In this document: positions 8,121 to 50,063 of the stretch, piece by piece
Layout of the letters: each line of letters opens with the position of its first letter
Numbering within the stretch: position 1 is the stretch's first letter
The notes under the pieces: generated by a model
The model's database searches: none
What the model was told of the DNA's origin: nothing
What the model saw: the letters and a program-made list of their open reading frames with translations, nothing else
Program-made: the position numbers and the translations under genes
Source of the DNA: a virus
Virus genome (UHGV): UHGV-0026213
DNA length: 64,000 bases
Direction: 5' to 3' (one strand)

Positions 8121-11075
8121 TTAATCGGCGGTAGTATCGTGACGGTTATAGACAATAACGATATCGTCTTTAAGTCCGATGTCGCCGCTGGCCTCAATGT
8201 CCAGCTTTTTACCTATAGTTGCTCTTGATGCTTCCGAAACAACGGTAAAGAGACGCATGTCTTTATCTGGTCCCATAGCATCGAGTTCAACACCGATAAT
8301 AGACGCATCGAGGGTTTCACTCAACGCATTACCGATTTCTGTTGCAGAGATTGTTAGATGACTACCCAAGTAATCATTGATAACCTGAGACGTTTTCTTA
8401 CGAATCTGCGTTAAGAGCTCGGTGTTATTACGGTTAGCAGCTGTTAGGTAATAACGCACGGTGAACTGGTTTTCCGCAGGGACAGGTGTTACTACCCCGT
8501 CCTCGGTACGGGCGTCGATATACCCCATTGTTGTAATCGGCACAAAGTAACCTTCGGTACGTTCTAACAACATAGGTTTCAAAGTTGGAAGTATTACCGT
8601 AACGTAGTTAACGATGTTTTCGATAACCTCGTTCAGATACGATTTTGCAGAAGGCGTCGTCGCGAATTTATATCGCGCATCGAATACCGCCATCTCACTA
8701 CGGAATTTGATAGAACGCGATTTCGCAATTTTCGGATTGCCGAATTCGTCTTTAACTAAGTCTCCTTCACGATGTAGGACGATCTGTTGTCCAGCCTCGT
8801 CAAGTTTAGGATCACCTTTACGATGCTCGTACGTAATCTGAAGTGGTGGCGTGCGACCTGCGTCGTAGGTGTAGATTGGTACACCGTTCTCATCGCGTTT
8901 AACCACATCGATTTCCCACGTTGCCATCACGTCTTTTTCGTAATACTGGTAGTTAATGCTGTCAGTAACAGCACGCGCTTTACGCCAGTAGTACGTCATT
9001 GCTTTACCCAATTCGATTTTGAAAATCTCGTGAGTAATACCAATAGCATCGCGTGACGGGGCAGTGATTAACGCATCCATTTCCGCACGTTCGTAATTAC
9101 CAGGATAATAACCGGTGCAGCCGTAGAACAGGTTGAAGTCCGTCATCAGCGGTACAGGCGTTTCCGTGGGTGTGCTACTACTAATGCGTGTATTCGTTAG
9201 CATTAATTCGTCGTTACGGTCAACGTCTAGGTTGGTTTCCAGCAGGAATTCCCAAACGCGTTCGCTACCCTGTTTACCGACTAACGTACCGTTGATGTAC
9301 GCTAAAGTGTTGTCTGCGTTACGTGGACGGAACGATAGCTGTGCAAAAACTTGATCGTCGGTCAGTGCTTGATAAGGTGCCTCTGACTTCGTTACGGTAC
9401 GCAATACATAACCGGCTTCGGTCTTTTCGATAGTGTAGTCGGCTGTTACCACACTGAGTTCCGTGCTTACGTTGGTGGCAATAAAGCGTTTGGAGTTTAA
9501 CGTCGGTTTATCTAATTGATAAATACGAACGTCAATGGCTTTGTTGTTGATATCCACAACGTAATGGAATGGTGTAAAGAGATAACGATTAGCGTTGGCC
9601 GCATTAATCAAATCTTCTTTACGCATGGTTTTTGCTAAGACCGTCATTTCCGCATCAACCGTCAAGCTGGTGTCGGTGAACCGATAAAGTGTGTCAGGAA
9701 GAATCGTCAGGCGATTACCGTTAACCTTTACCGTCGGTAGATTAACCAATTCATTCCAGGAGAAATAGAACGGTGCTGTGATCGTCCCGATGGGAGAACT
9801 GACATTGGGAATTGTCGATTCGAGCATCGGTGCCGTTAAGAAGTATGTACGGCTAGTAACATAGTCGTTTGGTTTCGACAACGTTAGACCGTAGTCAGAA
9901 ACCGTTGCTTCTAATTGTTTCTCCGTTACAGGGAGTTTTCGTGCACCCACAGCGTTATTGACTACACGTGTACGCAAATCTTCGAACGTGAGCTGGCTAC
10001 GACCACCTGACAACATTTTACCTGCTTTTGCAGCCATCTGTTTGATGGAAAAACTCTTAATCGGGTTCACGTAGTTTTCGTCGTATTCACCGTTCAAATC
10101 ACGCAATGTAAACGTGTATTCGTCAGACGGATAAGCCGAGATATCGACACTTAAAGGCCCTAAGGTCGTGTAGATATCCATACGAATTTCGCCGCTGACC
10201 AAATTCTTCGCCATGTAGATCGAGGGGATAGTACACCGTATAACGCCGTCACCGACCTGGATTAACGCGGTTGGGGTGTTGGGGTCGTAAACGTCACGAC
10301 TGTGCGTATGCTGAATTTCAACCCACTTGTTATCGTTGGTTGATTTCATCCACACCCTTACGTAGAAAAATTTGTTAGTGTAATGGCGGGTCATGACAAA
10401 GGTATTTTTCCCCGCAACGGTATCACTTTCGTTCTTCACCGCATACTGCATAACTGGGATATGGATTGCCAGTAGTTGCGAGGCCGTGGTGTTAGACGAT
10501 GTCAATTCCCAATCCAGCGCATTCGTCGACACAGGAGAAATAGGTGACTGTGTTTCGGTAATCCAAAGAACCTGAAATGCCGGGTTTTCATTGGTGCCGT
10601 AAGGAAGTACCCTGATTTCAATCGGGTACTGGATGGCAAAGGTGTAACCTGACACCGTGAAAACTGTGTCTCGTGGGATAACAACTTTACGCACACCCGC
10701 AATCTGTAAAGGGTACGCCTTGGAGATTAAACTATCAACATCGATTAATAACAACAGCTCGGTGGTTGAAGGTTGGGCGAACACATCAACGTAGTCCACA
10801 TCGGACATATGTCGGAACAGGTCATCGTACGTTTGCGCCATCGATGGAAATGTCTTTGGCACTGATTCCTGCAACCCCATAAGCGTTGCATGGCCCAACA
10901 TTGTCCCCATTTCCGCCAAATAAACAACAGGGTCTGTTGGGTCACGTAGCACTATTTGGCCTTCGGCGTCTTCTACATCCAGAAGCTGATTCAAGAGCAG
11001 TGTTTGCATCGCTGCCGGATGGTGGGCAAACAACAATATGTTCTTTGCCAAAGTATCGTAAGTCGTAGAACTCAT
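8121..11075 (-). CDS. hypothetical large protein (984 aa), possibly virion structural
   Basis: Long minus-strand ORF; TGATG coupling with upstream minus-strand gene. Confidence 0.5.
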   Translation of the reverse strand: MSSTTYDTLAKNILLFAHHPAAMQTLLLNQLLDVEDAEGQIVLRDPTDPVVYLAEMGTMLGHATLMGLQESVPKTFPSMAQTYDDLFRHMSDVDYVDVFAQPSTTELLLLIDVDSLISKAYPLQIAGVRKVVIPRDTVFTVSGYTFAIQYPIEIRVLPYGTNENPAFQVLWITETQSPISPVSTNALDWELTSSNTTASQLLAIHIPVMQYAVKNESDTVAGKNTFVMTRHYTNKFFYVRVWMKSTNDNKWVEIQHTHSRDVYDPNTPTALIQVGDGVIRCTIPSIYMAKNLVSGEIRMDIYTTLGPLSVDISAYPSDEYTFTLRDLNGEYDENYVNPIKSFSIKQMAAKAGKMLSGGRSQLTFEDLRTRVVNNAVGARKLPVTEKQLEATVSDYGLTLSKPNDYVTSRTYFLTAPMLESTIPNVSSPIGTITAPFYFSWNELVNLPTVKVNGNRLTILPDTLYRFTDTSLTVDAEMTVLAKTMRKEDLINAANANRYLFTPFHYVVDINNKAIDVRIYQLDKPTLNSKRFIATNVSTELSVVTADYTIEKTEAGYVLRTVTKSEAPYQALTDDQVFAQLSFRPRNADNTLAYINGTLVGKQGSERVWEFLLETNLDVDRNDELMLTNTRISSSTPTETPVPLMTDFNLFYGCTGYYPGNYERAEMDALITAPSRDAIGITHEIFKIELGKAMTYYWRKARAVTDSINYQYYEKDVMATWEIDVVKRDENGVPIYTYDAGRTPPLQITYEHRKGDPKLDEAGQQIVLHREGDLVKDEFGNPKIAKSRSIKFRSEMAVFDARYKFATTPSAKSYLNEVIENIVNYVTVILPTLKPMLLERTEGYFVPITTMGYIDARTEDGVVTPVPAENQFTVRYYLTAANRNNTELLTQIRKKTSQVINDYLGSHLTISATEIGNALSETLDASIIGVELDAMGPDKDMRLFTVVSEASRATIGKKLDIEASGDIGLKDDIVIVYNRHDTTAD

Positions 11076-12373
11076 CAGTTATTACCTGTCGGTAGTGAAG
11101 CGGCATTAGCATTATCCAGTAATCCCGCTTTCTTGAGAATATGTTGGTAGTCTGCCTGGTAAACATACCAGGTAAGTTTGCGTCGTACGGAATCGATGTG
11201 CGGATAACCGTAATAGTTAAACAACGGCAGCAATTGTGGCGCGATGGGGACTAATTGATCACTAGCAATTGGGATGAAGTTGCCCGACTGGATAGAACCG
11301 GGTTGCGGTAACATATCTGGATTAAAAATGGAAACGGTGCGGTTAAACATTTCCATGTATAGCGGATCGTTAAACCGTGCTCCGATAGCTTGCCAGTTAA
11401 TAGTAATCGTAACGTCGTCGTTTAACTGCGGTTTGGAGTTATCAACGTTCGCCATTTGTCCTGCGTTATCGTTCATCGGCCAAGCGACACAAATCGTCCA
11501 GAAACGGGTGATGTTCCCTAAGGCATCGTAACGCATCCCGTAGATTCGCGATTGATAATCGATTCTGCGTTGAATGGAGTTACGCATTTTCGGACGGAAT
11601 TTACCCATCTTCACACCAGACATATACTCCAGCCACACACCCATCATTTTCATTAATGGGTCGCCATAGGGGTTGTTTAATGACATGCTGATGGAAAAGC
11701 TGTTGTTAACTTCGTGGGTAGAGTCAACCATCCCCCACTGTTCACGCATTAAACCTTCACTTGCCATCCAGTTATCAATAGATTGATCGGGTGCACCACT
11801 AAGGCTAATCAGTTGCGTACTGAGTATTGGTATGAACGCTTGTAGATTATCGAATTTTACTTGAGGCATAAACGGCGTACCTAAGCGATTCTTCCGTCTG
11901 CCGTTTTCCATAGGTGCGTCTGTAAACCCGAGTTCAAAATCGGGGTCAAGCGCAGCTAATATCGAATAATCTATGGAGTCCTTTGGCTGCATTGCCATGT
12001 TCGACATTTTACGAGACTTAGCAATGTTGTCGTAGCACAGGTTAAAATCGGGCCGGGTAATAAAAGTTAGTCCACCGTATTCTCGGTTGATTGGCGTGGG
12101 GTTAGACGCCATCATATGGTTGAACCCCATGTAGGGGTTGGTCAAACGCTGCGCAGCAAGACCCAAACCTACAGTAAGACGGATACGATCGTTCCATGCC
12201 GTAAGTTCAGTATTAGCGTCGTATGGCGTCGGGGGGTTAGCATTACTAATCCGTCCGTCGAAATACCCTGCGACCGAAGGCACTGCGTCCGCGTTATTCG
12301 GATTGTGGAGAGAATCGTCGTAATCAGTATTCGGGTCATACCCCGGATCGTTCTTATCTGTCTCGTCACTCAT
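11075..12373 (-). CDS. hypothetical protein (432 aa)
   Basis: Minus-strand ORF with RBS GGAG before ATG at 12373. Confidence 0.5.
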   Translation of the reverse strand: MSDETDKNDPGYDPNTDYDDSLHNPNNADAVPSVAGYFDGRISNANPPTPYDANTELTAWNDRIRLTVGLGLAAQRLTNPYMGFNHMMASNPTPINREYGGLTFITRPDFNLCYDNIAKSRKMSNMAMQPKDSIDYSILAALDPDFELGFTDAPMENGRRKNRLGTPFMPQVKFDNLQAFIPILSTQLISLSGAPDQSIDNWMASEGLMREQWGMVDSTHEVNNSFSISMSLNNPYGDPLMKMMGVWLEYMSGVKMGKFRPKMRNSIQRRIDYQSRIYGMRYDALGNITRFWTICVAWPMNDNAGQMANVDNSKPQLNDDVTITINWQAIGARFNDPLYMEMFNRTVSIFNPDMLPQPGSIQSGNFIPIASDQLVPIAPQLLPLFNYYGYPHIDSVRRKLTWYVYQADYQHILKKAGLLDNANAASLPTGNN

Positions 12374-12399: not shown

Positions 12400-13506
12400 A
12401 TGTTAGAAAAAACGTTTGAGACAAGCGTTGTCTCTTTCCTCTCCAGACTTCCCATGCTGTTTCGTTCACGTGCGGAGTCGATGGAGGAATTTAACTCAGT
12501 GCTCTATAACGAGCACATTACCTTAGTCGAACAAAGCCTGCTGGGTTTAGATTACCTTCCGGGAATTCTGGAGAAAATCCAAATTTTGCTGGCAGGAAAC
12601 CAATTAACGGCTATCTCTCTGTTAACCGGTGTACCGGATGTTGACATTATCGGCACATTGGATCAGGTCAGTACACGTCGTAGTGCACTTGATAACGCAG
12701 TCCGCAGCGGTTCCCGCTTAGCAGCGCTTGCAGTCGGCGAATCTGCCCGTTATGGTTTACCATCATACGATAAAATCGGCATTGCAGTCGGCGAATCTTC
12801 CCGACGGGTCGCCCAGGAATCAAAAGGTTCGGTCAGTGGCGGGAAAGGTGATCCGATTAAACAGCTTTTCGATCAAGAAGGGTTGTCCAACGGGAAAATG
12901 TTCTCAGTAACATTCGAACGTGACGGTAATAAAGTCGAACTCCCAATGCGTTTACGTTTGGATGTGAAATCCTTACCGACCGAACAAATTGAAACACTGA
13001 TTGCGTTCAGTGACCAGACGAAAACATTCTGGGAACGTTGGCTGCGTGCACGCGTTGGCGCGTTGAGTTACGTAAAAGACATTGCGTTCTGTAACGACCT
13101 GGTAGAAGAATATCGTAAGAACCGTTATCGCGATAAGTCCGGTTATTACCGTAAGATGATGGAGAAGAAGAACGGTAACTGGTTGTCTGGTCTGCTGTCT
13201 TTGGCACCGTCAATCAATAACGCTTCTTCCGTTATGGTGGTTTCTCAAGACACCATCGACGGTTTGACCGCACAGCTAGGTGGCGAATTTGACGATTTCA
13301 ATATCCGTCAGCGTGTGTTCAAAGACACCTTGACCGTCTACTACGTTGTTGTGGACACCACCTGGAATCGTGTCACTATTTATACCCGTGGTCAGAACGG
13401 CTCTCAGGAACTCGATAAATCTGACTTTAGTAAATCGAAGTCTGGTAGCGCCGATGTAAATAAAATCATCGAAGCGTATCGCTCTGGCGCTCAGCCAGTT
13501 CTTTAA
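12400..13506 (+). CDS. hypothetical protein with short internal duplication
   Basis: RBS AGGAAA; near-identical 20-nt repeat at 12731 and 12784 encoding AVGESARY/AVGESSRR. Confidence 0.5.
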   Translation: MLEKTFETSVVSFLSRLPMLFRSRAESMEEFNSVLYNEHITLVEQSLLGLDYLPGILEKIQILLAGNQLTAISLLTGVPDVDIIGTLDQVSTRRSALDNAVRSGSRLAALAVGESARYGLPSYDKIGIAVGESSRRVAQESKGSVSGGKGDPIKQLFDQEGLSNGKMFSVTFERDGNKVELPMRLRLDVKSLPTEQIETLIAFSDQTKTFWERWLRARVGALSYVKDIAFCNDLVEEYRKNRYRDKSGYYRKMMEKKNGNWLSGLLSLAPSINNASSVMVVSQDTIDGLTAQLGGEFDDFNIRQRVFKDTLTVYYVVVDTTWNRVTIYTRGQNGSQELDKSDFSKSKSGSADVNKIIEAYRSGAQPVL

Positions 13507-15089: not shown

Positions 15090-16361
15090 ATGGCAAATTT
15101 CGCAAAAACTCGCGCCGCTCGTGAATCGATGGAAGCGGCCGATGAAGTAATCGACGGTATCAGCAACGTTGAACCGGCAGAAGAGAACCTGGACGTCCAA
15201 CTTGCGGACGTAGCATCTATCGACGGTCAGCTCGATCAGCTGGAAACCGATGGTGAAACCCTGGCTGCCGATACCGAGCGTACTGAAGACGCTATCGAAC
15301 AGGCGGAAGAAGCCGTTGCTAACGGTGAAGAAATGCCGGAAGAAGCGGTTGCCCTGCACGAAGTGGCACAGGAATCCATCGCACGTCGTTGGAACCTGGA
15401 GCGCACTAAACTGGCTCGCGAATCCTATCGCCGTGGTCGTGGCATGACTGCTGCTGCCCAGGAAGGTTGGAAAGAAACCCTGAAGGGTCTTTACGAGCGC
15501 TTCATTCAGTTCTGTAAAGAAGTGATCGCGAAGATCAAAGACCTGAAACTGAAATATTTCAACGTCGGTAAGACCGCGCAGAAACGTGCGAAGAAATATC
15601 AGGAAATGATCCGCAAGCTGGGCAAACAAGATAAAGACAACATTTCTGGTGGCTTTATCACCAAACTGTCCATCGAAGGTAAATTCGATGCTGCTGGCTC
15701 TATTGCCATCGCTAAAGAAGTGACCGCAGGTAAAGTGAAAGGTGCTATCGGTGCACTGGAAAAACAAGCTGGTGAAGCTGTGACCGCTGTTACCAAAGGT
15801 GACGATGACGCATTCAAAGCAATGCGTGGCGATCAGCCGGTAGAACTGTTTGGTAAAGCAGCGTCTAAACTGCATTCTCTGCCGAACTTTGAAAATGGTG
15901 ATGCGTCTAAACTGCTGGCACTGCCGGGCAACGCTTACGTTCAGGCCGGTACTAAAGAATTGGCTGGCGGCCACAAGTTCACCGCAATTGCTTTCATGAG
16001 CACCGGTGACGCTTCTGACGATAAAGAAGTGGCTACTCCGTCTGTTTCTGAAATGGCTGGCGCAGCATCTGCTCTGGAAGCAATCGGTAAAGGCTTCGAA
16101 GCCGTACTGAAAGATTTCCGTGCTTACGATTCTGAAATCGTGAAACTGCAACAGGCTGCTGAAAAAGCGTCCAACGCGCTGAACAACGAAAAAGACGAGA
16201 GTAAGTGGGAAGGACTGCGTAATGCACGTCAAGCTGCTGATCAGTCTGTGAAGAACTACCAGACCCTGAACCGTGCCGTTAGCTACGTAGCTAACACCGT
16301 CATTAGCGGTCTGAACGGTTACCTGGGTGCTGGTATCGGCGCGTACAAAAAGTCTAAATAA
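15090..16361 (+). CDS. abundant acidic-propeptide protein, paralogue 1 (putative internal head/ejection protein)
   Basis: Strong codon bias; acidic N-terminal ~90 aa ending in AQE at codons 93-95 (15366-15374); paralogous to next gene. Confidence 0.6.
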   Translation: MANFAKTRAARESMEAADEVIDGISNVEPAEENLDVQLADVASIDGQLDQLETDGETLAADTERTEDAIEQAEEAVANGEEMPEEAVALHEVAQESIARRWNLERTKLARESYRRGRGMTAAAQEGWKETLKGLYERFIQFCKEVIAKIKDLKLKYFNVGKTAQKRAKKYQEMIRKLGKQDKDNISGGFITKLSIEGKFDAAGSIAIAKEVTAGKVKGAIGALEKQAGEAVTAVTKGDDDAFKAMRGDQPVELFGKAASKLHSLPNFENGDASKLLALPGNAYVQAGTKELAGGHKFTAIAFMSTGDASDDKEVATPSVSEMAGAASALEAIGKGFEAVLKDFRAYDSEIVKLQQAAEKASNALNNEKDESKWEGLRNARQAADQSVKNYQTLNRAVSYVANTVISGLNGYLGAGIGAYKKSK

Positions 16362-16437
16362 TTAGACTTACGCTCGTACAGTTCTTGAAATAAATCAATA
16401 GGGGAACGACGTGTTCCCCTTAGAGGAAAAGCTTAAA

Positions 16438-17700
16438 ATGGCAAATTTCGCAAAAACTCGCGCCGCTCGTGAATCGATGGAAGCTACTGCCACTGTAGTT
16501 CCAGACGGCATCGAACTGCCAGCAGAATCTGTTGAAGGTACTCTGGCCGACATCGAGCATGATACCAAACCGATCGAAGCCCTGGACGCTGACGCTGAAC
16601 TGCTGGCAGAAGACGGTGACGAAACCGATGCTCAGCTGGAAGTTCTGGATGAAGCTCAGGCTGCTGCTGACGGTGAAGGTGCTGGCGAAGACGGTGAAGA
16701 ACCGATGGACGCCGAAGAAGATATGCCGGACGACGCTGCGACCGCGCTGGACGTTGCTCAGGAATCTATCCGTTCTCGTTGGAACTTCGAACACCGTTCT
16801 TCCGTTGCACACGAATCCTACGGTTCTCGTAACCGTCGTCAGGTTGCTCGTGAATCCCTGTGGGAAGACATTAAAGCCTTCCTGAAACGTATTTGGGAAT
16901 GGCTGAAAGAACAAGGCCGTAAGATCAAAGATCGTTGGCTGAAATTCTCCAACCAGGGTAAATCCATCCAGGCCCGTTCTAAGAAATACGACGAAGCTAT
17001 TCGTAAGCTGGGCAAACAGAAGAAAGATGAAATCTCTGGTGGCTTCATCAAGTCTCTGTCCGTCGACGGTAAATTCGTTGGTGACGATCTGGTGCGCCTG
17101 AAGAATATCCTGAACCACGTTTCCACCTACTACAGTGGTAACGTTCAGAGCTTCCTGAACAACGGTACGGATTTGGTTGGTAACGTTGTTAAAGGCGATG
17201 GCGCTAAAGTTGATAAACTGAAAGCAGACTTCGCTGCTCTGGCCAAAGAAGACGTTAACAAGTTCAAACTTGGTAACATGGCGCTGAAGATGGAATATGA
17301 CGAAGAAGGCGGCTTTAGCTCCAGCTACGTGGAAGCTGAAAACCGTGCTGAAACCAACGTTAAAACTCCGTCTGTTAGCGAACTGGCTAAGACCAATGCC
17401 TTCTTCAACGAAGTGGGTAAACAGATTGAGAAGAACGTTCTGGAATATCGTAAGACCGAACAGGCTCGCGAGAAATTCAGTCAGCAGATTGAGAAGCTGC
17501 TGAAAGAAATCGACAGCGTGAAGATCGACGAAAAACCGGAACTGACCGAATCTGTACGTACCGCACGTCGTTACATCAACAGCATTAACCAGGCAGTGTC
17601 TCTGGGCGAGAAAGTTATTGCCTCTACTCAGAAACATCTGGCTGGCGGTCTGAACGGCTATATCTCCGCAGGTATCGCTGCTTACGAAAAATCTAAATAA
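16438..17700 (+). CDS. abundant acidic-propeptide protein, paralogue 2 (putative internal head/ejection protein)
   Basis: Same N-terminus MANFAKTRAARESMEA; acidic region ending in AQE (16756-16764); RBS GAGGAAAAG. Confidence 0.6.
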   Translation: MANFAKTRAARESMEATATVVPDGIELPAESVEGTLADIEHDTKPIEALDADAELLAEDGDETDAQLEVLDEAQAAADGEGAGEDGEEPMDAEEDMPDDAATALDVAQESIRSRWNFEHRSSVAHESYGSRNRRQVARESLWEDIKAFLKRIWEWLKEQGRKIKDRWLKFSNQGKSIQARSKKYDEAIRKLGKQKKDEISGGFIKSLSVDGKFVGDDLVRLKNILNHVSTYYSGNVQSFLNNGTDLVGNVVKGDGAKVDKLKADFAALAKEDVNKFKLGNMALKMEYDEEGGFSSSYVEAENRAETNVKTPSVSELAKTNAFFNEVGKQIEKNVLEYRKTEQAREKFSQQIEKLLKEIDSVKIDEKPELTESVRTARRYINSINQAVSLGEKVIASTQKHLAGGLNGYISAGIAAYEKSK

Positions 17701-17718
17701 TCCCTGATTGTTTAGTAA

Positions 17719-17762
17719 GAGAACCACCCTGTAATGGGGTGGTTCTCCCCTTTCTTTTTTTT
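17719..17762 (+). terminator. intrinsic terminator
   Basis: GAGAACCACCC/GGGTGGTTCTC stem then T-run. Confidence 0.7.
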
Positions 17763-30224: not shown

Positions 30225-32519
30225 ATGAAAGATACCCGAATCTCTAATCTGGAGAAACTCGTACAAGCTGGTAACTCGCTGGTACAAAGCGTCATTAGTA
30301 ACAACAGTGCTGGCGAAATGTGGAACACCATCGTTGCCGGTGAATCTGTACGTAGCAACACGAAAGTTTTTGGTACCCTGCGTGACGATGCTGCACAGCA
30401 CTACGCAAACGCGTTTGCTGGCGGCAAGAAAATGTCCCACGCTGCGGAAGTTGCTTCTGCAATGATTCTGGGTGCTGCTGGTCACGGTATGGACCTGCAA
30501 GAAAAAGTAGCGCAAGAATACGCTAAACCAGAATTCCATAGCCGTTTTAACCTGGACGTTGCGATTCCTGGTTCCCAAGCTGGTAACGGCGACTGGGGCA
30601 AAGATCGTATGGTTGTTGCTCAGGAATACTACACCAACAAAGATTACGACAAAAACCTGGGTCTGACCTGGACGCTGAACGTACGTGCTCTGGAAACTCA
30701 GTCTCGTTTCGCTGAGACTCTGTTCCCGACCATCACCGTTGACACCAATGACGTTGGTATTACCGTACGTACCAAAGTGACCACCGTTTCTCGTGGTGTC
30801 ATGCACGCGTTACTGACCAAAGACGTTGTTGAAGATCATCGTCGTAACCTGCACGAAGCGCTGACTGACCACACCGTTCTTCAGGACGAAGCGATCAACA
30901 TCGTTCCTTATGTAATGGAAACCGGTGAAAACGCTGAATACTTCGTAAGCGAAGATCTGGTACCGAACGAATCTGTTCGCCTGGGTCGTGTACCTCCGTA
31001 CCCGACTAACTACCTGAGCTTTGCTAAAGACACTCTGAACCTGTTCCAGCTGTCTGCGCATCCGGGTATCGTTCAGGAAGGTTACGACGAAACTGATGAA
31101 ATCGCACCGGGTTGTGCTCTGGGCAGCCTGCTGATTTCCGTACGTAAACCGACCGAAGAAGCGAAAGCAGGTAAATTCATTAAACTGCACGTTCGTGACA
31201 TGCAGTTCGCAACCTTCCAGCGTCCCGCTGAAGGTGACGGCCGTGAGCTGGTTCTGCAATTCCGTCGTACTGCGTTCTCTCTGAATGCGAAAACTACCGA
31301 CTGGACTGGTGCGGCTATTCCGGCACTGCAAGCGCTGGGTCAGAACTCCTACACCCTGCGTTATGTGATCACCATCAACATGTCTCTGTTCACTACCGGT
31401 CAGTTCGGTGGTAAAGTTGACATCGCTGGTCACAAACTGGAAATCGAAGGTCTGTACGATGCTACCGGTAACAAAGTTGATACCAAATCTGGTACCGGCA
31501 AAGTTATCCTGGACGGTCTGAAACTTGAACTGATGGGCTGGCGCTTCGATGGTACTCGTACCAACGAAAACCGTCGTACCCAGGGTCTGCTGCTTGACCC
31601 AATCTGGGAACAAGAAAACTACAAACTGCAATACGGTTCTCCGATCCTGACCAAGTCTCCGGTTGGCGTTGAATACGACGATACCGAACGTCTGGACGAC
31701 CTGATTTCCGCAGTTAACATCCGTAACGAACAGCTGGCTATCACTCAGACGCTGTCTTACACCGAAGCGGTACGTAACGCTGCTGCAAGCATGATCACTC
31801 CGTGGGACAAACCGGCCATTCGTGGTCTGGGCCGTCACTGGGTTGCTCCGTGGTTCAAAGAGTCTGACTACAACGTTGATGAAGTTGTACAGTCCCTGGA
31901 TACCAAAGATGCACTGATCAACGCTCGTCAGGGCCTGGTACAGCGTATCGGTAATCAGGTAACTCAGGCTATCCAGGAATCTCGCTTCATTCCTGCGCTG
32001 CGTCTGTACACTGCCGATCCGGACATTCTGCCGAAAGTTGTTATTGCAACTGACGAACCGACTGCATCTATGCTGCTGCTGGTACAGGGCGACCAACGTC
32101 TGCTGGGCGATCGCTACGAATACGAAGTGATCACCACCAACGATGACCGCTGGCGTATCTACAACGCAGCTGACGGTTCCTGGACTCGTCGTCTGCAATG
32201 GTTCCTGAAAGTTCCGACTGCGGACGATGGTTCCTACAACGTGCTGAACTGGGGTAACCACTTCTGGTCTCCGATCATGGTTACCAACATCAACATTCAG
32301 CGTAACGGTTCTACCTCTAAAGAGCTGGCCGTACAGCCGCGTAACGCGCACATCTGCCACTGCCCGATCACTGGTCTGATCTGGGTTAAAGGTATCACCA
32401 AACTGGTTGAAGAAAAACTGGCTTACAATGTTTCTGTTGAACAGAACGGTCAGAAACAAACCGAAGGTGGTGTAGCAGGTAACGTTGCTGGCGAAGGCAA
32501 AGCTGCTGCTGGTAAGTAA
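30225..32519 (+). CDS. putative major capsid protein (764 aa)
   Basis: Very strong codon bias; size typical of phiKZ-like capsid proteins; N-terminal region has several A-x-E motifs (AQE twice); strong terminator at 32535. Confidence 0.55.
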   Translation: MKDTRISNLEKLVQAGNSLVQSVISNNSAGEMWNTIVAGESVRSNTKVFGTLRDDAAQHYANAFAGGKKMSHAAEVASAMILGAAGHGMDLQEKVAQEYAKPEFHSRFNLDVAIPGSQAGNGDWGKDRMVVAQEYYTNKDYDKNLGLTWTLNVRALETQSRFAETLFPTITVDTNDVGITVRTKVTTVSRGVMHALLTKDVVEDHRRNLHEALTDHTVLQDEAINIVPYVMETGENAEYFVSEDLVPNESVRLGRVPPYPTNYLSFAKDTLNLFQLSAHPGIVQEGYDETDEIAPGCALGSLLISVRKPTEEAKAGKFIKLHVRDMQFATFQRPAEGDGRELVLQFRRTAFSLNAKTTDWTGAAIPALQALGQNSYTLRYVITINMSLFTTGQFGGKVDIAGHKLEIEGLYDATGNKVDTKSGTGKVILDGLKLELMGWRFDGTRTNENRRTQGLLLDPIWEQENYKLQYGSPILTKSPVGVEYDDTERLDDLISAVNIRNEQLAITQTLSYTEAVRNAAASMITPWDKPAIRGLGRHWVAPWFKESDYNVDEVVQSLDTKDALINARQGLVQRIGNQVTQAIQESRFIPALRLYTADPDILPKVVIATDEPTASMLLLVQGDQRLLGDRYEYEVITTNDDRWRIYNAADGSWTRRLQWFLKVPTADDGSYNVLNWGNHFWSPIMVTNINIQRNGSTSKELAVQPRNAHICHCPITGLIWVKGITKLVEEKLAYNVSVEQNGQKQTEGGVAGNVAGEGKAAAGK

Positions 32520-48929: not shown

Positions 48930-50063
48930 ATGTCAACATTAGATTCCGATTTAGAAGTCCTTTGCGATGACTACGATCGTTTGGTCGCGTTAGAATCGCT
49001 TAATGTTAAAGACAATTATCCGGCGGTTGTCGCTATCCGAAAACGGTGGGCTTTAGATGATGTCCACGTTGCGTTGGAGTCTGCAGCGATGATGGAACGC
49101 GCGCAATTTGTTGCGGACACCGAGCCTTACGCAGGGGTAGGTAAAGCGGTCGCACGCGCGACCGGCAGAGCGGTTAAGGGAGTTGGACGCGTTGCTGGAA
49201 AAGCAGCAGTGGCAGGAGCCAAAGCGTCTGGAAAATTCGCAGGTAAACATTCTAAGCAATTGGCCTTACGTTTTATCGACTTCGCGGAAGCCGCCGGTAA
49301 AGAAGTTATTAATGAACTGAAAGAAGCGACGTCCAAAGCATCGTCGTTAGAACGCAAGCTACAGAAGTTAGAAGCACGTTTAAGTTTACTTGGTATCAAG
49401 GACACCTTAAAACCGGTTGACTGTGACACAGGAAGTTGGACAACAAAAGTTTGTTTAGAAGACAAGCCTAACGTAAAAGCATGTATTGAGTTCAGTAAGA
49501 ACCTGAGCGCAATGGATGCGATGGTCAACGAGTATACTGTTAAAACACGTACGTTAATCGGTAAGAGCAAGAAAGTTACCGAGAGCGGTTTGGAGAAAGT
49601 GGGCCGGTCAACGAACTGGGCGATTAAACGAAGCGCAGGACTGTTCGGTATTATCGATCCGTTTAAAACGGTGAAAGCATATCCGTGGCCAGGTAACGTG
49701 GTGGTCGTTGAACACAACAACGGTAAGATTGAGTGGGCGATTGCTCGCGACGGTGATTTTGGCCACACAATCAAATCTCTGAACTTGCACGAAATCGGTT
49801 CAGCACTCGACGCCGTTAGAAACATTATCCGAGCGTTACGTCAGCGTGGTGCGAAACGACGTAGTGTAGGGTATACAGGAATTTATGACGAAATTCAGCG
49901 TATGCGTAAGGAACTTAAGTCGCTTGAAGGGCGGGAGTTACGCGACGCTACCGTACGTTATAAAAACGCACTGCGTTTAGAAGATGCGTTTACTACCTCG
50001 TTAGTGCGCGTTGCGGAAGGGTTACTGGAGTGGTGCAGGTTGTCACTGATTGAGGTTAAATAA
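48930..50063 (+). CDS. hypothetical protein (377 aa)
   Basis: RBS AAAGGA; Ala/Gly/Lys-rich N-terminal region. Confidence 0.5.
   Translation: MSTLDSDLEVLCDDYDRLVALESLNVKDNYPAVVAIRKRWALDDVHVALESAAMMERAQFVADTEPYAGVGKAVARATGRAVKGVGRVAGKAAVAGAKASGKFAGKHSKQLALRFIDFAEAAGKEVINELKEATSKASSLERKLQKLEARLSLLGIKDTLKPVDCDTGSWTTKVCLEDKPNVKACIEFSKNLSAMDAMVNEYTVKTRTLIGKSKKVTESGLEKVGRSTNWAIKRSAGLFGIIDPFKTVKAYPWPGNVVVVEHNNGKIEWAIARDGDFGHTIKSLNLHEIGSALDAVRNIIRALRQRGAKRRSVGYTGIYDEIQRMRKELKSLEGRELRDATVRYKNALRLEDAFTTSLVRVAEGLLEWCRLSLIEVK

Follow-up and report, generated by a model that had tools for sequence, protein, structure and literature searches.

Paired AVGE/S motifs in the propeptide of a phiKZ-like head protein are candidate secondary prohead-protease sites

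In the viral genome UHGV-0026213, of which we analysed a stretch of 64,000 nucleotides (64 kb; hereafter the window), the plus-strand gene at 12400-13506 encodes a head protein of 368 amino acids (aa) that carries the pentapeptide AVGES twice, 18 residues apart. Judging from sequence, we propose with a probability of roughly 60% that these two AVGE/S motifs (the slash marking the cut) are additional, non-canonical prohead-protease sites within the propeptide of this protein, and it is the cutting at AVGE/S that we infer. The proposal builds on the orthology of the gene, the position of the motifs inside the propeptide and their conservation pattern, which are demonstrated here, and on literature that supports the cleavage of the orthologue in phage SPN3US, the motif of the protease and the cutting of long propeptides at several sites. 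Such extra sites would be an ordinary feature of this phage group.

The gene is an orthologue of SPN3US gp50, phiKZ gp89, 201phi2-1 gp151 and EL gp58, and PHROG 3239 covers the whole of its product (E=2.5e-142), with residues 3-368 aligned to profile positions 7-372. The protein is 81.8% identical to SPN3US_0050 ("putative virion structural protein 4"), 64-71% identical to homologues from Erwinia and Cronobacter giant phages and 24-27% identical to those of phiKZ-like phages, and tblastn matched the gene in 218 phage records. In the GenBank records of 201phi2-1 and PhiPA3, gp151 is noted as similar to phiKZ gp89 and EL gp58. SPN3US gp47, our first guess for the orthologue, was rejected, as it is a different gene. 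A Pfam scan of the 368-aa protein returned no family, and a sequence search against PDB chains gave only a chance-level match (E=0.71); by that search, no solved structure exists for a family of the PHROG 3239 type. Upstream, on the opposite strand, lie a 432-aa gene of the PF23971 type and a 984-aa gene; downstream follow a PHROG 3187 gene, a PhiKZ_gp91-like gene and a phiKZ_IP internal head protein gene. The gene is thus divergent from a gp49/gp88-like gene and followed by gp51/gp90-like, gp52/gp91-like and internal head protein genes, an order common to the window, SPN3US gp48-gp53, phiKZ gp87-gp93 and the annotated 201phi2-1 region. Homology and synteny therefore make the window part of an SPN3US-like giant phage. 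The exact protein is present on many assembled contigs (50 or more); on one of them, a metagenome contig of 224,967 bp, the DNA of the gene is 100% identical. On these matches, the gene is that of an internal head protein of the SPN3US gp50 / phiKZ gp89 type from a phiKZ-like giant phage of roughly 224 kb. In phiKZ, gp89 is among six abundant "inner body" head proteins, with 100-200 copies (PMC13282480), and a preprint reports that it stays in the head at injection (bioRxiv 10.1101/2024.03.24.586471).

SPN3US gp50 is a head protein and is cut by prohead protease gp245, with a predicted mass of 41.5 kDa, a mature mass of 25.6 kDa and a site given as "ATE-127" (PMC10052503 Table 2; PMC5694885 Table 1), and the mature 25.6-kDa form was detected in tailless heads (PMC10052503 Tables S2 and S3). 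Only KVATE145/SS fits in the 372-aa GenBank protein, and 145 residues match a propeptide of 15.8 kDa. The mismatch between "ATE-127" and the sequence is explained by numbering from Met19 instead of M1, so that the site is ATE-145 in the 372-aa protein; the predicted gp50 mass of 39.4 kDa in the 2017 paper (PMC5694885) matches a Met19 start as well. VAQE140/S of the window protein aligns with the mapped VATE145/S, and RVAQE140/S is the one canonical site in the relevant region. By this alignment, residues 1-140 (12400-12819, plus strand, as are all features of this gene) are predicted to form an N-terminal propeptide that would be removed by the prohead protease, with the maturation cut predicted after E140 within the canonical site VAQE/S (residues 137-141, 12808-12822). 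The predicted mature head protein (residues 141-368, 12820-13503) is conserved across the compared phiKZ-like phages. Head location and loss of the propeptide are known only for SPN3US gp50 and have been reported for phiKZ gp89. The protease belongs to a serine protease family that includes SPN3US gp245 and phiKZ gp175 (MEROPS S80) and is related to T4 gp21.

Both AVGES motifs lie in this N-terminal propeptide, upstream of the maturation cut, and are encoded by a 22-nucleotide (nt) direct repeat. Copy 1 (12728-12749; TTGCAGTCGGCGAATCTGCCCG) encodes LAVGESAR (residues 110-117) and copy 2 (12782-12803; TTGCAGTCGGCGAATCTTCCCG) encodes IAVGESSR (residues 128-135); the AVGES codons themselves span 12730-12744 (residues 111-115) and 12784-12798 (residues 129-133), with putative cuts after E114 and E132. 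The VAQE140 site follows 26 residues after E114 and 8 residues after E132. The two copies are in frame, 54 nt (18 codons) apart and identical at 21 of 22 positions, 17 nt of them exact. An earlier sequence-only reading of the window had pointed out this short in-frame repeat, and the repeat search, the pattern search and the shuffles bear it out. Its translations (AVGESARY, residues 111-118; AVGESSRR, residues 129-136) and its spacing of about 18 codons are right, as is 12784 for the second copy, whereas its 12731 for the first copy is off by one, GCAGTC beginning at 12730. When up to three mismatches were allowed, the repeat pattern had exactly two copies in the window, and two matches arose in 0 of 100 window shuffles. 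At the peptide level, the pattern x[VIM]GE[SA] occurs three times among the 65 called open reading frames (ORFs) of the window, two of these in ORF 12400-13506. A search for AVGES-type motifs in the other head-protein propeptides of the window found none except one VVGE in ORF 25064-25870; with this as the sole other case, AVGES is therefore not a general motif of the window phage.

How well do these motifs agree with what is known of the protease? SPN3US gp245 cuts after A-X-E; at P4 it favours Val and, less frequently, Ala, and at P1' it favours Ser (PMC10052503 section 3.3). We could locate 13 of the 14 mapped SPN3US sites, and all read [V/A/L]-A-x-E, with Ser as the next residue in 10 of the 13. 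In the window, the pattern [VAL]-A-x-E-[SGYN] is almost confined to homologues of gp45, gp47, gp50, gp53, the major capsid protein, the portal and gp94, with one further match in the gp51 homologue. As the canonical pattern keeps to known or suspected gp245 substrates, the SPN3US protease logic evidently applies to the window phage. Measured against this logic, both motifs have Glu at P1 (E114, E132), Ala at P4 and Ser at P1'. It is at P3 that they depart from it: the window motifs have Val there, SPN3US sites Ala, phiKZ sites Ser or Ala and T4 sites Ile or Leu.

Conservation of the motifs follows the same division between positions. Both xGE-S motifs are retained in homologues down to ~45% identity, where their positions are fixed and, in most, separated by 17-22 residues. 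Among the 72 homologues in which motif residues were counted (a separate alignment of 30 sequences reaches 48% identity), Glu occupies P1 in all 72 at either motif, and P1' is Ser in 67 (motif 1) and 64 (motif 2). P2 is Gly in 58 and 63, respectively, and P3' is mostly Arg in both motifs. P3 is far freer, with Gly in 24, Ala in 20, Ile in 14, Val in 6 and Met in 6 at motif 1 and Val in 42, Ala in 21 and Ile in 7 at motif 2; P4 is Ala, Val, Ile or Leu at motif 1 and mostly Ala or Val at motif 2. P3 and P4 together alternate between AV, VA and AA, and many homologues read VAGE/S, AAGE/S or IAGE/S. By this switching, many of them are fully canonical A-x-E (VAGE/S, AAGE/S), and P3 residues of the SPN3US or phiKZ type are found in 44 of 72 at motif 1 (Ala or Gly) and in 21 of 72 at motif 2 (Ala). 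In the CR5 type, which reads PAVE/S, the loss of Gly restores A-x-E. The invariant positions are those that this family of glutamyl endopeptidases reads, which fits cleavage sites.

Homologues also vary at the maturation site itself. The column of the mapped cut reads VAQES, VATES, VARES, VAAES, VGRES or PGRES, and in two homologues (P0026 and P0032) it reads AVGES. In many others (P0004-6, P0011, P0014-17, P0039/40 and P0069/70), no A/S/G-x-E site lies anywhere from residue 85 to the conserved C-terminal domain. If these proteins are matured at all, their conserved Glu-Ser, site-like candidates are limited to the A[VIM]GE motifs, apart from an [LM]xE-QE motif, also conserved, that sits ~14 residues ahead of that domain.

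If the two motifs are cut, the prohead protease would cleave after Glu during head maturation at E114, E132 and E140, the last being the predicted cut at VAQE140/S that removes the N-terminal propeptide from the precursor, and these three successive cuts would dismantle the C-terminal end of the propeptide. The resulting pieces would be one of ~114 residues, an 18-residue piece that holds GLPSYD (SARYGLPSYDKIGIAVGE) and an 8-residue piece (SSRRVAQE). Small pieces could exit the capsid, and having the site more than once would add redundancy. In SPN3US, phiKZ and T4, long propeptides undergo cleavage at multiple sites to let the fragments clear the capsid (PMC10052503 section 3.3; PMC5694885; PMC9026906), and T4 gp21 tolerates Ile or Leu at P3 (ITE-6, LTE-619; PMC5694885). 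Besides, an AlphaFold2 model built with 30 homologues shows residues 112-151 as coil with a predicted local distance difference test (pLDDT) score below 50, which is weakly consistent with an exposed linker.

Several points weigh against cleavage at the motifs. The Val at P3 of both motifs is neither the Ala of SPN3US sites nor the Ser, Ala or Gly of the phiKZ type, Val or Ile at P3 and Gly at P2 are seen in none of the 13 located SPN3US sites, and the SPN3US authors suggest that gp245 is more stringent than the phiKZ protease (PMC10052503 discussion). No cut has been reported for SPN3US gp50 at the corresponding E114 or E132; these missing reports carry little weight, because trypsin would leave products of only 2-3 residues C-terminal to the cut (SSR, SRR) and propeptide fragments leave the head. 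In the alignment around the maturation column, homologue P0037 lacks the motif-2 Glu. Overall, the AlphaFold2 model is poor (mean pLDDT 50). Finally, the same conservation pattern could arise if the motif bound something and stayed uncut.

This last point leads to the serious rival of the cleavage-site reading, namely that the two [A/V][V/A/I]GE-S-x-R motifs and GLPSYD together form an uncut binding or assembly element of the propeptide that only resembles cleavage sites. Such an element might serve as a capsid-targeting or scaffold contact, or as an exosite or pseudo-substrate dock that positions the protease for the nearby canonical cut. We regard it as less likely than cleavage. It would account for Val at P3 and Gly at P2, both of which are absent from all 13 located SPN3US sites. 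It has precedents in the N-terminal fragments of phiKZ gp93 and gp162, which remain bound to the inner capsid surface (PMC11297242), and in T4 propeptides, which serve as capsid-targeting sequences (PMC5694885). The segment between the motifs is also better conserved than the rest of residues 100-170, something that a spacer meant for disposal would not call for. Its most conserved stretch is GLPSYD (residues 119-124, 12754-12771). L120, P121 and Y123 are invariant in the 30-sequence alignment together with E132 of motif 2, and in a 12-sequence alignment that includes phiKZ, 201phi2-1, PhiPA3 and a Vibrio phage, L120 is still invariant and GLPS recognisable in most. An uncut element sits less well with the division of the motif positions, where P1 Glu and P1' Ser are the invariant ones and P3/P4 alternate between canonical and non-canonical residues. 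It also has to accommodate the two homologues with AVGES at the mapped cleavage column, the many homologues in which no other conserved Glu-Ser site-like candidate precedes the mature domain, and the unstructured state in which the region is modelled, at low confidence.

A further reading would reconcile the conserved segment with cleavage. Here, both motifs would be cut and release a conserved ~18-residue peptide (S-x-R-x-G-L-P-S-Y-D-x-x-x-x-A-V-G-E) with a role of its own in the head, in analogy to the small internal peptides derived from core proteins in T4, or the segment would act as a protease-docking element that orders the cuts. We consider this rather unlikely, though either version would explain why GLPSYD is the most conserved element of an otherwise discarded region. 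If it were true, the gp245-type protease would accept Val, Ile or Met at P3 with Gly at P2, widening its known specificity.

Returning to secondary cleavage sites as the preferred reading, the distant relatives offer a looser version of the same layout, as they keep GLPS[YL][DE] flanked by x-x-E motifs. In phiKZ gp89, the site-like motifs near it are FSAE/E, IVAE/H and ASME/A, and in the Vibrio phage they are VGTE/S, IAAE/C and YALE/A. phiKZ gp89, 201phi2-1 gp151 and PhiPA3 gp092, at 21-26% identity, share with the window protein the conserved C-terminal domain, GLPS[YL][DE] and the gene order, and in proteins of the phiKZ gp89 type site-like x-x-E motifs flank GLPSLE; they differ from it in being without the AVGES pentapeptide. 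In the alignment, phiKZ gp89 has FSAE/E at motif 1, IVAE/H at the maturation column and no clear equivalent of motif 2. SPN3US gp50 is much closer: in addition to its full-length identity of 81.8% and its shared gene neighbourhood, it has xGE/S motifs at the same residues (AIGE114/S and AVGE132/S) followed by a V-A-x-E/S site. Its linker from motif 2 to that site is RRQKSDNK-VATE (E145), whereas that of the window protein is 5 residues shorter (RR-VAQE, E140), and its motif codons are identical at 14 of 27 nt compared with 22 of 27 in the window. With T4 gp21-type processing, the proposal shares cutting after Glu in a short motif and several sites per propeptide (PMC5694885, PMC10052503, PMC9026906).

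Directly after motif 2 (window residue 135, 12804), homologues carry a hypervariable low-complexity insertion rich in Asn, Gly and Arg, of roughly 0-100 residues. It accounts for most of the length variation among homologues (368-470 aa), of which the window protein and its nearest relatives are the shortest. The long insertion forms have no canonical A-x-E site after the insertion.

The sequence-only reading had described the repeat as a tandem duplication and suggested a repeat-containing structural motif. This reading is supported in part, as the repeat is a real and conserved feature of the protein, but it is not a tandem duplication and is unlikely to be a structural motif. Beyond the 22-nt core, 8 of the remaining 32 bases agree between the 54-nt units, no more than expected by chance, and the peptides that follow each core are unrelated (YGLPSYDKIG and RVAQESKGSV), so that similarity is confined to an 8-residue core and does not extend over the full length of the units. 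Tandem Repeats Finder (minimum score 30) reported no tandem repeat at the two copies. Nor does copy number vary among relatives, as the earlier reading had suggested checking: the two motif positions are fixed, no homologue in the 30-sequence alignment or the 72-homologue motif table gains or loses an 18-residue unit, and the length variation lies in the unrelated Asn-rich linker. The third AVGES of P0026 and P0032 is a substitution at the maturation site and not an extra unit. Homologues devoid of the repeat, which that reading had named as the outcome that would speak against it, were not found, since both motifs are kept; a structural repeat is nonetheless unlikely, as the motifs sit in the part that is cut off and discarded in SPN3US gp50 and have the anatomy of glutamyl-protease cleavage sites.

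What remains to be explained is how similar the two copies are at the DNA level. None of 1000 codon shuffles gave a 17-nt exact repeat, and 1 of 2000 did so when the protein was fixed and synonymous codons were permuted. All five AVGES codons are identical between the copies (P ~0.0035 from window codon usage), and L011, the nearest distinct relative (87.9% nt and 97% amino-acid identity to the window), differs at four synonymous positions of copy 2, at each of which the window base equals that of copy 1. These values would favour a tandem duplication that arose recently and in frame, or a short-patch gene conversion within the gene that ran from copy 1 to copy 2, either one marking a structural repeat of variable copy number. 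We judge this account very unlikely, and its duplication part is already refuted by the flank comparison, Tandem Repeats Finder and conservation. Both motifs are ancient and fixed in position, and homologues encode them with different codons (11-20 of 27 nt identical). Over the motif regions, the two copies are identical at 22 of 27 nt in the window, at 20 in Wellington, 18 in L011, 17 in CR5, 15 in pEa29 and in phiEaH2, 14 in SPN3US and in Huxley, and 11 in Caitlin.

Strains that encode the identical protein are particularly informative about conversion. Two of them use GCG for Ala111, which lowers the repeat to 20 of 22; two others use GCG for both Ala codons and GGT for Gly131, again giving 20 of 22, and this second pair differs from the window at 12786, 12792, 12810, 12816, 12831 and 12840; this patch (12786-12840) continues far past the repeat. 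A patch of this extent points to ordinary drift or recombination between strains rather than to conversion from copy 1. With stepwise synonymous variants in sister strains and a difference patch that overshoots the repeat, we largely rejected intragenic gene conversion. On the compared sequences, the perfect match is one haplotype among strains that share the protein, reached through a few synonymous steps or by exchange between strains, and we saw no evidence for a DNA-level function of the near-perfect identity of the copies.

Coincidence without meaning at either the DNA or the protein level is the least probable account, and we think it highly improbable. For the window protein taken by itself, composition shuffles produced an exact 5-mer repeat in 12 of 300 cases, which is not unusual, and a match at 6 of 8 residues in 28 of 300, so that shuffle statistics on this single protein are weak evidence for a peptide repeat. 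The repeat counts as real because it is conserved in homologues: both motifs stand at fixed positions in 72 homologues with an invariant P1 Glu, and two of only three x[VIM]GE[SA] occurrences in the 65 called ORFs fall in this one gene. Conservation thus refutes chance for the peptide motifs; only the extra nucleotide identity is still likely to be due to it.

A conserved A[V/I/A]GE/S pair beside the mapped gp50 cut bears on whether the SPN3US-type protease is restricted to A-X-E and on how long propeptides are dismantled, and the invariant GLPSYD that the motifs enclose is a candidate for a functional propeptide element. Outside giant-phage head assembly, the relevance of these findings is small. 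For genome scanning, they illustrate that a short in-frame repeat in a phage head gene can be a repeated protease site and not a duplication.

Other genes of the window carry sites of the canonical type. The major capsid protein homologue (30225-32519, plus strand) has VAGE40/S, VAQE98/Y and VAQE134/Y, the last corresponding to the mapped SPN3US ATE-130. In the gp53 homologue (15090-16361, plus strand), AARE12/S, VAQE95/S, LARE111/S and AAQE125/G are found, and three of these match mapped SPN3US gp53 cuts. An apparent homologue of SPN3US gp94, assigned by position only (48930-50063, plus strand), contains LVALE22/S and HVALE50/S near its N-terminus. SPN3US gp94 is a suspected, unconfirmed protease substrate (PMC10052503), and the two N-terminal canonical sites fit this suspicion.

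The genes upstream of the head-protein gene raise a question of naming. The 432-aa product of 11075-12373 (minus strand) matches Pfam PF23971, "putative phage tail tube protein" (E=4e-176), and adjoins the gene at 8121-11075 (minus strand). In SPN3US, it is gp255 and gp256 that carry the tail tube and sheath assignments (PMC5694885 Table 1), and gp49 and gp48, the orthologues of 11075-12373 and 8121-11075, are classed only as "Tail" by mass spectrometry (PMC10052503 supplementary tables). The Pfam name may therefore be misleading for this family.

Among the database records, six entries from Salmonella phages SPFM1, 6, 9, 10, 12 and 14 (P0075-P0080; e.g. LR535901, LR535905) present gp50 in blocks of ~20 residues (60 nt) in reversed order, for example ...VATESS followed by ASFAIGESSRHTLPSYDKIG and then by DQVSTRRNALD... 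This looks like a database or assembly artefact of reversed sequence lines and not like biology, and the block-reversed records explain the odd 5-6% megablast matches. Downstream in the window, a minus-strand ORF was called at 16420-17727, where related contigs have a second phiKZ_IP paralogue on the plus strand (gp54-like, 420 aa) that starts soon after 16361; the minus-strand ORF is probably spurious. Lastly, the window and L011/L012 (Salmonella Chester assembly; Sequence Read Archive run) differ at 2 positions in 12400-12582, the first 183 nt of the head-protein gene, and at 132 positions in the 924 nt of 12583-13506. This sharp change in divergence at 12582/12583 suggests a recombination boundary inside the gene.

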